Source of the DNA: Frankiaceae bacterium
Lineage (GTDB): Bacteria > Actinomycetota > Actinomycetes > JADGOV01
Direction: 5' to 3'
NCBI GenBank assembly: GCA_017882785.1
Contig: JADGOV010000005.1
Span: forward strand, 1-63,946
DNA length: 63,946 bases
The notes below the pieces were generated by a model, which saw only the letters and a program-made list of their open reading frames with translations, was not told the DNA's origin and made no database searches. Shown piece after piece: positions 56,852-57,898 of the stretch. Within the stretch, counting starts at the first letter, position 1. Each line of letters begins with the position of its first letter. The translations under genes were made by a program, and so were the position numbers.

Positions 56852-57898
56852 GTGAGAATCGTGGTCTGTGACAGCGATTGTGCCTGCTGCCGCTCCGCTC
56901 GTGCGACATTCGTCAACTCGTCCAGGGGCTGCTGTGGCAGCGGATACGGCGGCCCGGAGTACGGCGGGCCCGAATACGGCGGGCCCGAATACGGCGGGCC
57001 CGAATACGGCGGGCCCGAATACGGCGGGCCCGAATACGGCGGACCCCAGAACCGCATCCCACCAACCGGCTGGCACGCCGACCCGCCGGACCCGCGGGAC
57101 CACCGTCACGAGATCGAGGCATCGAGAAGGACGCTGCCGACCGATGTCGACCTACGGGACCTGGTGGACGTCCCGGTCTATCAACAGGGGCGCTTCCGCT
57201 CCTGTACCGCGAACGCGTTGGCCGCTGCCATCCGCTATCTGGATCTGGACGGGGCAGAGGCCCTCCGGCCGTCCCGGATGTTCCTGTACTGGAACGAGCG
57301 GCTGGAGGAGCACGACGAGACGTGCAACAGCACCGTCGCGATCCGCTCCAGCCTCCGCGTGCTCAACCGGCTGGGTGTGTGCGAGGAGAAGCTCTGGCCC
57401 TATCTGCCAGAAACGCTCTGCCGGCGGCCGCCGGCCTGGGTCTATGACTACACGCGGCTGCAAGGGCGCGTCGCGTATGCCCGGGTGCCGCGGCCCGGCG
57501 AGCACCCGGACAACCTCCAGGTGACCGAGGTGCAGTACACGCTGGCCGAGCGGAAGCAGCCGGTGATCTTCGGTTTCTCGGTGCTCGAAGGCTTCGTGAA
57601 GGCCCGCCGCGACCGCGGTCGCGTCCCGGCACCGGCGACGGACGAGCGGGTGCTCTTCGGGCATGCCGCAGTCGCCGTCGGCTACCGGACGGGAGACGAC
57701 GGCCCGGAGTTCATCTGCCAGAACTCCTGGGGTCGCCACTGGGGCGACGACGGGTTCTTCTACCTCCCGGCGGCGTACTTCGCCTCCCGGTACATCACCT
57801 CCGACGTGTGGAGTCTGTGGCGGGCCAGAAGGGGCCGGCCCGGCACCGAAGCTGCTGGCGGCTCCGACTCGACGTCGGCAAGCGAAGCGGAGACGTAG
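56852..57898 (+). CDS. Papain-family (C1) cysteine protease with Cys-rich tip and YGGPE repeats, about 348 aa
   Basis: GAGGAG RBS then GTG 56852; QG...SCTANA, PSRMFLYWN.R, GHA..AVGY and NSWG..WG..G. Confidence 0.9.
   Translation: MRIVVCDSDCACCRSARATFVNSSRGCCGSGYGGPEYGGPEYGGPEYGGPEYGGPEYGGPEYGGPQNRIPPTGWHADPPDPRDHRHEIEASRRTLPTDVDLRDLVDVPVYQQGRFRSCTANALAAAIRYLDLDGAEALRPSRMFLYWNERLEEHDETCNSTVAIRSSLRVLNRLGVCEEKLWPYLPETLCRRPPAWVYDYTRLQGRVAYARVPRPGEHPDNLQVTEVQYTLAERKQPVIFGFSVLEGFVKARRDRGRVPAPATDERVLFGHAAVAVGYRTGDDGPEFICQNSWGRHWGDDGFFYLPAAYFASRYITSDVWSLWRARRGRPGTEAAGGSDSTSASEAET
56945..57049 (+). repeat. 15-bp tandem repeat x7 encoding (YGGPE)6 YGGPQ
   Basis: tacggcgggcccgaa x5 identical, with variant first and last units. 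Confidence 0.97.

Follow-up and report, generated by a model that had tools for sequence, protein, structure and literature searches.

An apparently variable pentapeptide array in the N-terminal extension of a xylellain-type cysteine peptidase from a Frankiaceae bacterium

Introduction

Why would a bacterial cysteine peptidase carry a tandem run of five-residue units in front of its catalytic domain? This question is raised by a gene on a 63,946-nucleotide stretch of DNA from a Frankiaceae bacterium (GenBank assembly GCA_017882785.1, contig JADGOV010000005.1), and the whole of this stretch is called the window below. The gene encodes a xylellain-type C1A cysteine peptidase, and the element in question is an array of seven units in the N-terminal part of that protein. 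An earlier note, made from the letters alone, had read the array as (YGGPE)7 and had proposed three roles for it, namely a signal peptide in many copies, a docking motif and a slippage-tunable autoinhibitory linker. The analysis reported here indicates that this is very probably a real, selected and variable coding array in the pro-region of the protease. The array is an expandable, lineage-specific part of the N-terminal extension of the enzyme.

The pentapeptide array

The gene and the parts of its product are located in the window as follows:

56852 to 57898, plus strand: gene of the repeat-bearing xylellain-type C1A cysteine peptidase, 348 aa (Pfam, match to structure 3OIS, AlphaFold2 (AF2) and Foldseek)
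56837 to 56842, plus strand: ribosome-binding site GAGGAG, 9 nt before the start codon (sequence; aligns with genome G002)
56852 to 56944, plus strand: Cys-rich N-terminal head, residues 1-31, with six Cys (eight in G002) (translations; low AF2 confidence)
56945 to 57049, plus strand: (YGGPE)6 followed by YGGPQ, seven in-frame 15-bp units (Tandem Repeats Finder, translation and a predicted local distance difference test score (pLDDT) of 36-51 in the AF2 model)
57065 to 57100, plus strand: GWHADPPDPRD, the conserved N-terminal motif of the family, G72-D83 (100-sequence alignment)
57134 to 57766, plus strand: papain-fold catalytic domain with Gln112 (57185-57187), Cys118 (57203-57205), His271 (57662-57664) and Asn291 (57722-57724) (alignment; pLDDT >90)

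The repeat was detected by Tandem Repeats Finder at 56944-57046 with a period of 15, 6.9 copies, 94% matches and a score of 178. It encodes a run of acidic, Pro/Gly-rich pentapeptides with the pattern hydrophobic-small-Gly-Pro-Glu/Gln and lies between the 31-residue Cys-rich head and a GWxxDxPDxRD segment. The 15 residues after the array lead into G72-W-H-A-D-P-P-D-P-R-D83. At the DNA level the array consists of one unit TACGGCGGCCCGGAG, five identical units TACGGCGGGCCCGAA and one unit TACGGCGGACCCCAG. The outer units differ from the inner five by synonymous third-position changes, and the last unit also carries GAA>CAG, which replaces Glu by Gln; the edge units have diverged and the inner units are homogenised. 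The coordinates and the synonymous codons (GGC/GGG/GGA, CCG/CCC, GAG/GAA) listed in the earlier note proved correct on rereading. Seven units are present as it had claimed, but the seventh is YGGPQ and ends in Gln. Its placement of the array just ahead of the motif that opens bacterial C1A peptidases was confirmed, in the N-terminal extension of the protein.

Several minus-strand open reading frames (ORFs) of 69-147 aa lie over the array at 56666-57122. They contain PPYSG-type repeats and gave a self-match in the genome search. These frames (56752-57057 and others) look like a side effect of the GC-rich repeat and were rejected as genes, the protease frame having a GC content at third codon positions (GC3) of 0.83 and the minus-strand self-match being of low complexity.

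Translation of the array

The protease ORF is the sole long ORF of high GC3 on this stretch. Its maximal form begins at 56597 and overlaps the upstream gene, which ends at 56787, and the GTG at 56852 was chosen as the start codon. This GTG and the GAGGAG ahead of it align with the ATG and CGAGGAGA of the same-genus ortholog in G002, and the two proteins begin with MRIVVCD (window) and MRLTVCC (G002), respectively. All in-frame starts that retain the conserved motif lie upstream of the array, and no in-frame ATG, GTG or TTG was found between the array and the conserved motif in the window ORF. The array is translated, because no start lies between it and the motif and because the start codon and ribosome-binding site are conserved. 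A translation start downstream of the repeat, which according to the earlier note would speak against its account, was thus not encountered.

A metatranscriptome run (X15) contains 57044-57600 with one mismatch, together with pieces of the array. This match was not counted as expression, because metatranscriptome libraries can hold DNA. A simple promoter and terminator scan of 52400-58400 returned 0 sites and is uninformative in DNA of 71% GC.

Selection on the peptide

The earlier note had suggested selection on the peptide from the synonymous differences of the end units. The suggestion was borne out by evidence from another species that is much stronger than the end-unit argument. The ortholog in genome G008 (43% identity) is arranged as head-(LTGPE)7-linker-head-(LTGPE)5, and its 12 units comprise eight DNA haplotypes. 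Four sites vary among these units, all of them third codon positions (CTC/CTG, ACG/ACC, GGC/GGT/GGG and CCC/CCG/CCT/CCA), and at least seven changes are required, none of which alters a residue. With 13 of the 45 possible single-base changes being synonymous, P is ~1.7e-4 for seven synonymous changes out of seven, a value that comes from a crude equal-rates model applied to units related by duplication (units 3-4 are the same as units 5-6). Gly-Pro-Glu (positions 3-5) is common to the YGGPE and LTGPE arrays at ~40% protein identity. Across lineages, a hydrophobic residue is kept at position 1 (Tyr or Leu, and in degenerate copies Phe or Ile too) and a small one at position 2 (Gly or Thr). The array peptide is under selection.

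These data bear on the main rival explanation, a passive entropic spacer. Such a flexible linker would set the distance between head and catalytic domain, its unit number would change by near-neutral slippage, and the identity of its units would be kept by concerted evolution and a mild compositional constraint. The five DNA-identical inner units of the window array indicate recent slippage and fit this explanation. Conservative replacements would, however, be expected to be tolerated in a spacer, and none is seen among the eight haplotypes of G008; nor would the retention of Gly-Pro-Glu in lineages of ~40% identity be expected. The spacer is regarded as rather unlikely, and further points in its favour are given below where they arise.

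Identity and structure of the peptidase

The Pfam profile Peptidase_C1 (PF00112) matched residues 95-305 with 40.1 bits against a cut-off of 20.7. Among solved structures, xylellain (3OIS) gives the best sequence match (E 1.7e-34), and the alignment runs from query residue 73 and chain residue 34. The array is directly N-terminal to the segment that aligns from xylellain residue 34 onward, which supports its position in a pro-region. In the 100-sequence alignment Q112, H271 and N291 do not vary and C118 hardly does, and the peptidase has a complete catalytic set. The family consensus near the N-terminus is GWxPDxPDxRD, in which D80 and D83 are nearly invariant among the 100 sequences.

The AF2 model of the window protein, built on a 100-sequence alignment, has a mean pLDDT of 80.4 and a predicted template modelling score of 0.79, with the catalytic domain above 90. 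Its best Foldseek match is 3ois_A (E 3.3e-23, target TM 0.82). There were 299 matches in the Protein Data Bank (PDB) at E<=0.001, and all the rows listed (ranks up to 50) are papain-family proteases. Profile match, catalytic residues, fold and N-terminal motif together place the catalytic domain among the xylellain-type C1A peptidases. The 71-residue head and array is an addition to the xylellain-type plan. pLDDT falls below 50 at residues 1-6 and 16-63, which is most of the head and array, and the model predicts that the array is disordered. Disorder across the arrays in both modelled proteins, those of the window and G008, is also what a spacer would show.

Pfam reported no inhibitor-I29 domain in the window protease. 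No signal peptide, lipobox or hydrophobic core was seen in the N-terminus (MRIVVCDSDCACC...) by inspection, with no dedicated predictor run, and a reading of the N-terminus as a lipoprotein or signal peptide was dropped for this reason. A type VII secretion motif of the form YxxxD/E was likewise dropped; YGGPE fits its letters and LTGPE does not, and no helix-turn-helix (HTH) context was seen.

The N-terminal heads

The heads of the window protein and of the G002 protein P0004 (residues 1-34) have a similar Cys distribution, in that several Cys are grouped around positions 6-13 and a CC pair stands immediately ahead of the array. This pattern suggests that the Cys-rich head may be a metal- or redox-binding module. 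It is not found in the LTGPE-type orthologs, which have a Cys-free beta-strand head instead. A reading of the head as a zinc-binding anti-sigma domain was dropped, the head having only 31 residues, being non-helical in the AF2 model and not occurring in the LTGPE clade. A search of the ESM Atlas with residues 1-72 gave a best score of 0.77, under the level of a usable lead.

The block of head and array is tandemly duplicated in the G008 protease (L225, 9707-10822) and also in P0014, as FRVSLDISGPGFSTS-(LTGPE)7 followed by FHVSLEISGPGFSTG-(LTGPE)5. In the AF2 model of the G008 protein, residues 7-14 (FRVSLDIS) and 67-74 (FHVSLEIS) of the two heads are predicted as beta-strands with a low to moderate pLDDT of ~55-60, and both arrays are below 45. 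The two strands might pair, which would make a loop of the first array.

Relatives and distribution

A word-indexed search returned 10 proteins, of which three carry arrays: P0003 (92% identity over the alignment, 13 units), P0004 (66% identity, 12 YGGPE-type units and one degenerate unit) and P0005 (41% identity, LTGPE x4). The remaining seven (32-40% identity) are arrayless and start 10-50 residues before the motif. The earlier note's account would have been weakened had close homologs lacked any repeat, and arrays were found both in close homologs and in homologs of ~40% identity. An exhaustive profile-free search returned 10,335 cluster representatives at E<=0.001. An exact-repeat detector run on 161 proteins found N-terminal arrays only in P0003, P0004, P0005, P0014 (LTGPE 7+5 in two blocks) and the window ORF (P0001). 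Degenerate period-5 traces were seen by eye in P0015 (FEITGPDITGS) and P0025 (HQFGGHQFGG) among the 13 longest N-terminal parts. In xylellain and in ~145 of the 150 top-ranking family representatives, the motif is preceded by only ~10-35 residues, and no tandem array is present.

A tree was made from the catalytic domain only, cut at residue 72, as a quick tree and not as a full careful search. The six array-bearing or degenerate sequences fall on one side of a branch with a Shimodaira-Hasegawa-like approximate likelihood ratio test (SH-aLRT) support of 93, which is below 95, and 0 of 500 label shuffles were as good. Support was 99 for the YGGPE pair and 98 for the trio of LTGPE and degenerate sequences. 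The tree allows, without proving it, that the N-terminal extension may have had a single origin. The existence of clade members with degenerate arrays speaks for the spacer.

Clade-level matches (424-554 bits) were obtained in three genomes (G000, G002 and G008) of about 850 searched. The class sample had such a match in 3 of 401 genomes, and eight further genomes in it had the general family at 204-237 bits. The match was found in one of six genomes of the order of G008, in G000 only (1/401) in the phylum sample, and in the same three genomes when the 41 nearest relatives were searched. These samples show rarity, and none of them establishes absence from a group.

A DNA scan for four successive (Y/L/F)-(G/T/S/A)-G-P-E codon units was made over 185,579 species genomes with a complete listing; the collection may omit the window's own genome. 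Of the 80 stretches returned, only two are followed by DxPDxRD, namely L375 (YGGPE x12) and L335 (two LTGPE blocks), which were counted as G002 and G008 because their arrays match. One of the other stretches, in L365, belongs to a region rich in Gly, Pro and Asp and precedes a hydrophobic segment that probably spans the membrane. A generic DNA scan of genome contigs for xxGPE x4 gave at least 120 stretches, which are GC-rich repeats in many frames; among the matches listed, none was followed by the C1 motif. Searches of genome and metagenome contigs for related loci gave, among the matches listed, only the general short family from the GW motif onward, with no new arrays and no extra synteny. 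Arrays at this place are restricted to a rare actinobacterial subclade.

Apparent variation in unit number

P0003 belongs to a 90% cluster of 16 members. P0163 (unrelated, 56 aa) and P0175 (244 aa, starting inside the catalytic part) were set aside. P0175 lies on a 16.8-kb contig, and there may be a break or a frame problem at the array in that assembly. The 13 full-length variants differ from the window protein in 0-1 of 30 head residues and 0-2 of 282 post-array residues, and their flanks are at least 99.3% identical. They have 13 different arrays, of 6, 7, 7, 9, 9, 9, 10, 10, 11, 12, 13, 14 and 15 units, all from short-read assemblies. Most arrays open with an E-type unit, continue with a stretch of Q-type and then one of E-type units, and close with Q. 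Two arrays beginning QQ, two beginning EE, P0167 and the window array, which has no internal Q, depart from this order. Isolated Tyr>Phe and Tyr>Asn units also occur. The slippage-type copy variation that the earlier note had envisaged is supported by the range of 6-15 units among near-identical strains, but the exact counts rest on short-read assemblies. So wide a spread in near-identical strains would also fit the weak length constraint of a spacer.

This stretch was found in runs of 12 studies labelled as soil, permafrost, biocrust, wetland and ice, and eight of the matches may be the source of the window. Logan contigs of four public runs were examined over 56500-57600. Each run has contigs ending inside the array and none bridging it, and unit counts, the window's seven included, are without independent confirmation because no contig bridges the array. 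Alone among the 13, the window array lacks an internal Q unit, and it may represent a collapsed form.

An assembly error, or an array outside the translated gene, is another rival explanation. The unbridged array and the lone absence of an internal Q in the window point in this direction. They are opposed by three DNA runs and one RNA run that contain pieces of the array along with the flank on either side, by in-frame arrays at the same place in 13 independent assemblies and two other species, and by the translation evidence given above. An artefact is very improbable. The earlier note had asked whether raw reads would reveal one; on the read contigs the repeat itself is present in four runs, but its copy number is not bridged.

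The neighbouring regulatory genes

Two genes upstream of the protease have counterparts beside it in the other array-bearing genomes:

53812 to 56787, plus strand: LAL-family STAND regulator, 991 aa, with AAA_16 ATPase, TPR-like sensor and LuxR/GerE HTH (Pfam AAA_16 E 1.7e-29, GerE E 1.2e-17)
52784 to 53425, minus strand: extracytoplasmic function (ECF)-type sigma factor gene, 213 aa, divergent from the LAL gene (Pfam Sigma70_r2 E 4.8e-13)

The immediate neighbour is a LAL regulator, with an AAA_16/STAND ATPase, a TPR-like middle part and a LuxR/GerE HTH. TPR_12 scored 18.6 bits in the window LAL, under the cut-off of 30.1, and was above the cut-off in the orthologs of G002 and G008. The LAL and protease genes are on the same strand and separated by 64 nt. 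All three genes occur in G002 in unchanged order, with the sigma factor 72% and the LAL 66-67% identical to those of the window. G008 belongs to another family of the class, and its LAL gene is directly upstream of the protease gene. BLASTP gives 37% identity along the whole of this LAL (39% in the genome search), and no other protein of that genome matches better. A sigma factor gene of 37% identity is located just downstream of the G008 protease gene in convergent orientation. Neither in G001 (same genus, 91% complete) nor in G003 (same family, 86% complete) was a clade protease, a LAL above 33% or a sigma factor above 52% found, which fits joint presence and absence of a cassette. The sigma factor, LAL and protease genes thus appear to be a co-inherited cassette, in which the link to LAL is firmer than that to the sigma factor. 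The TPR-bearing STAND and ECF neighbours described in the earlier note were confirmed and are co-inherited in G000, G002 and G008.

Only LAL and sigma are common to the three neighbourhoods, and no conserved transporter or modifying enzyme was found in the module there. The other neighbours are unrelated: 4'-phosphopantetheinyl transferase, thioesterase, DUF3159 and HAD proteins in the window, MMPL in G002, and signal peptidase and PMT in G008. The short-form members L004 (from the unpublished genome G033) and L005 have neither an array nor an adjoining LAL. PADLOC gave no defence-model match for the protease or the sigma factor, and LAL was matched through its HTH region only.

This neighbourhood bears on two of the roles proposed earlier. 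In the first, the units would be a multicopy peptide signal that the protease cuts in cis and the TPR-like sensor of the adjacent LAL binds, giving an intracellular feedback loop. In its favour, LAL is immediately upstream and co-inherited in all three array-protease genomes, the five-residue units are exactly conserved, and tandemly duplicated short peptides are read by TPR receptors in Bacillota (PMC11343458). Against it, no signal peptide or conserved transporter accompanies the module, LAL is a STAND ATPase and not an RRNPPA receptor, the unit differs by lineage (YGGPE versus LTGPE), and release of a peptide is an assumption only. This role is unlikely. An elaborated form is slightly more so: a self-contained intracellular signal generator in which autoproteolysis at each unit would release a strain-set number of Gly-Pro-Glu pentapeptides, switching LAL and then the ECF-type sigma factor.

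In the second role, the array would be a multivalent docking site, the motif recruiting a partner in multiple copies, be it the LAL sensor, the sigma factor or some other protein, or associating with itself, and unit number would be its valency. In its favour, a short motif repeated many times over within disordered sequence is characteristic of multivalent binders, unit identity is under selection, and STAND regulators work through oligomerisation. The partner is, however, only hypothetical, valency would vary 2.5-fold among near-identical strains, and clade members with degenerate arrays exist. Docking is accordingly held to be improbable. A complex prediction with LAL residues 385-910 (3-row alignment) and protease residues 1-100 (7-row alignment), made without controls, scored 0.00 against a mark of 0.32 and was counted neither way.

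A possible pro-segment

The preferred explanation is that the array is a multi-site, self-cleavable pro-segment or tether. Papain-family enzymes prefer a hydrophobic residue at P2, and a bulky hydrophobic residue followed by a small one is a P2-P1 combination that suits them. Each unit would be such a papain-type site, with a bulky hydrophobic P2 (Tyr, Leu), a small P1 (Gly, Thr) and the invariant Gly-Pro-Glu on the primed side. With the array intact, the enzyme would be latent or held to the head module. Trimming in cis or in trans would free active protease, which would act within the sigma/LAL circuit. Replication slippage would change the number of units and thereby tune the duration or strength of latency. 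The N-terminal region of xylellain reportedly covers the active-site cleft. Of the three mechanisms in the earlier note, only the slippage-tunable autoinhibitory linker gains support from these results, and that support is indirect.

Several observations weigh against this explanation. No result here demonstrates cleavage, and we infer the pro-segment role. AF2 leaves the array unplaced, with a pLDDT below 50, in both modelled proteins, and neither model has a unit docked in the active-site cleft. The clade can do without a long array, because P0015 and P0025 have only degenerate ones. Some of the spread of 6-15 units may be assembly error. A closer homolog of the window sigma factor (53%) is present elsewhere in G008, and the orthology of the adjacent sigma factor is uncertain because of this paralog. 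The scan of 185,579 genomes also found YGGPE x4-5 runs in unrelated actinobacterial contexts (L316, L360 and L365), so that the unit is not unique to the protease; it may be a recurrent low-complexity module in the phylum, and runs such as that in L365 favour the spacer. Taken whole, as a real variable array that acts as a pro-segment or tether, the explanation falls somewhat short of an even chance. The cleavable pro-segment mechanism on its own is tentative and a little more doubtful than that.

Comparison with known systems

In PMC10380794, xylellain-type is the name for short bacterial C1A peptidases, and the classical papain-family N-terminal extension blocks the active site until autoprocessing removes it. 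Xylellain (Xylella fastidiosa C1A peptidase, PDB 3OIS) shares with the window protein the catalytic Gln, Cys, His and Asn, a GWxPDxxDxRD-like segment and the lack of an I29 prodomain. It differs in having a short N-terminus before the motif, with neither a tandem array nor a Cys-rich head. Propeptides of the I29 type are also extensions ahead of a catalytic domain, but they are folded, helical and ~100 residues long, whereas the window extension is a disordered repeat without an I29 domain and its processing is putative.

The Phr-type RRNPPA propeptides resemble the window array in their tandem units of five-residue scale and in an adjoining TPR-containing regulator. As described in PMC11343458, they are separate secreted propeptides of 50-120 aa with 1-4 copies, are matured by an extracellular protease, re-imported by Opp and bound by Bacillota RRNPPA receptors. 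The window system, in contrast, has 4-15 copies fused to a protease without an export signal, and its neighbour is an Actinomycetota STAND/LAL ATPase. A Sec signal peptide (by inspection) and an RRNPPA receptor, the marks of an RRNPPA system, were both missing, the neighbour being an AAA_16-TPR-GerE STAND protein. The mark of a ribosomally synthesised and post-translationally modified peptide (RiPP), a conserved modifying enzyme beside the precursor, was likewise missing from the three neighbourhoods.

Multi-core precursors, such as plant BURP-domain cyclases and fungal Kex2-processed repeat precursors, contain many identical cores, and some are fused to an enzyme. They are eukaryotic and secretory and give modified products, whereas the window gene has no conserved modifying enzyme adjoining. 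Bacterial coding variable number tandem repeats (VNTRs), or contingency repeats, share with the window array a unit length that is a multiple of three, an apparently variable copy number between constant flanks, and homogenised inner units with diverged edges. Known coding VNTRs are mostly in surface or secreted proteins under immune or phage pressure. The window array differs from them in lying in the pro-region of an enzyme without an export signal and in its strictly conserved peptide.

Relative to the xylellain type, the Cys-rich head, the pentapeptide array and the linkage to LAL and sigma are additional features. No description of the array or of the LAL/sigma/protease cassette was found among the matches listed in the literature searched, which excluded supplements (proteins of this kind might appear in Supplementary File S2 of PMC10380794). 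The 10,335 cluster representatives show how widespread peptidases of the xylellain type are in bacteria, and their substrates and regulation are unknown; for xylellain, PMC12090721 reports an unknown substrate. The present subclade offers three handles, namely a selected N-terminal element, natural variation in unit number and two regulatory genes that are constant neighbours. An array that controlled activation would be a coding minisatellite that tunes an enzyme without an export signal, rather than a surface antigen. To our knowledge, the inducers of LAL-family regulators are mostly unknown, and units that serve as ligands of the LAL sensor would name a ligand class for them. If the array is only a spacer, it would be an ordinary low-complexity linker.

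Other features of the window

The region 57917-62289 on the minus strand, downstream of the protease gene, encodes 4'-phosphopantetheinyl transferase and thioesterase (overlapping ORFs 57917-58825 and 58681-59811), DUF3159, HAD hydrolase and acyl-CoA dehydrogenase proteins. This small set looks lipid- or polyketide-related, and neither G002 nor G008 has it next to the protease. Two adjacent genes for AdnAB-like UvrD-type helicase/PD-(D/E)XK nucleases are present at 20396-26949 on the minus strand. At 31451-34934 a Ku gene precedes LigD, which is divided between two ORFs (ligase/phosphoesterase and primase-polymerase). The AdnAB-like and Ku/LigD loci are ordinary actinobacterial DNA-repair loci. 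Two GAF-ANTAR regulators, one of which has an added STAS domain, are encoded close together at 9979-11145 and 13489-14391.

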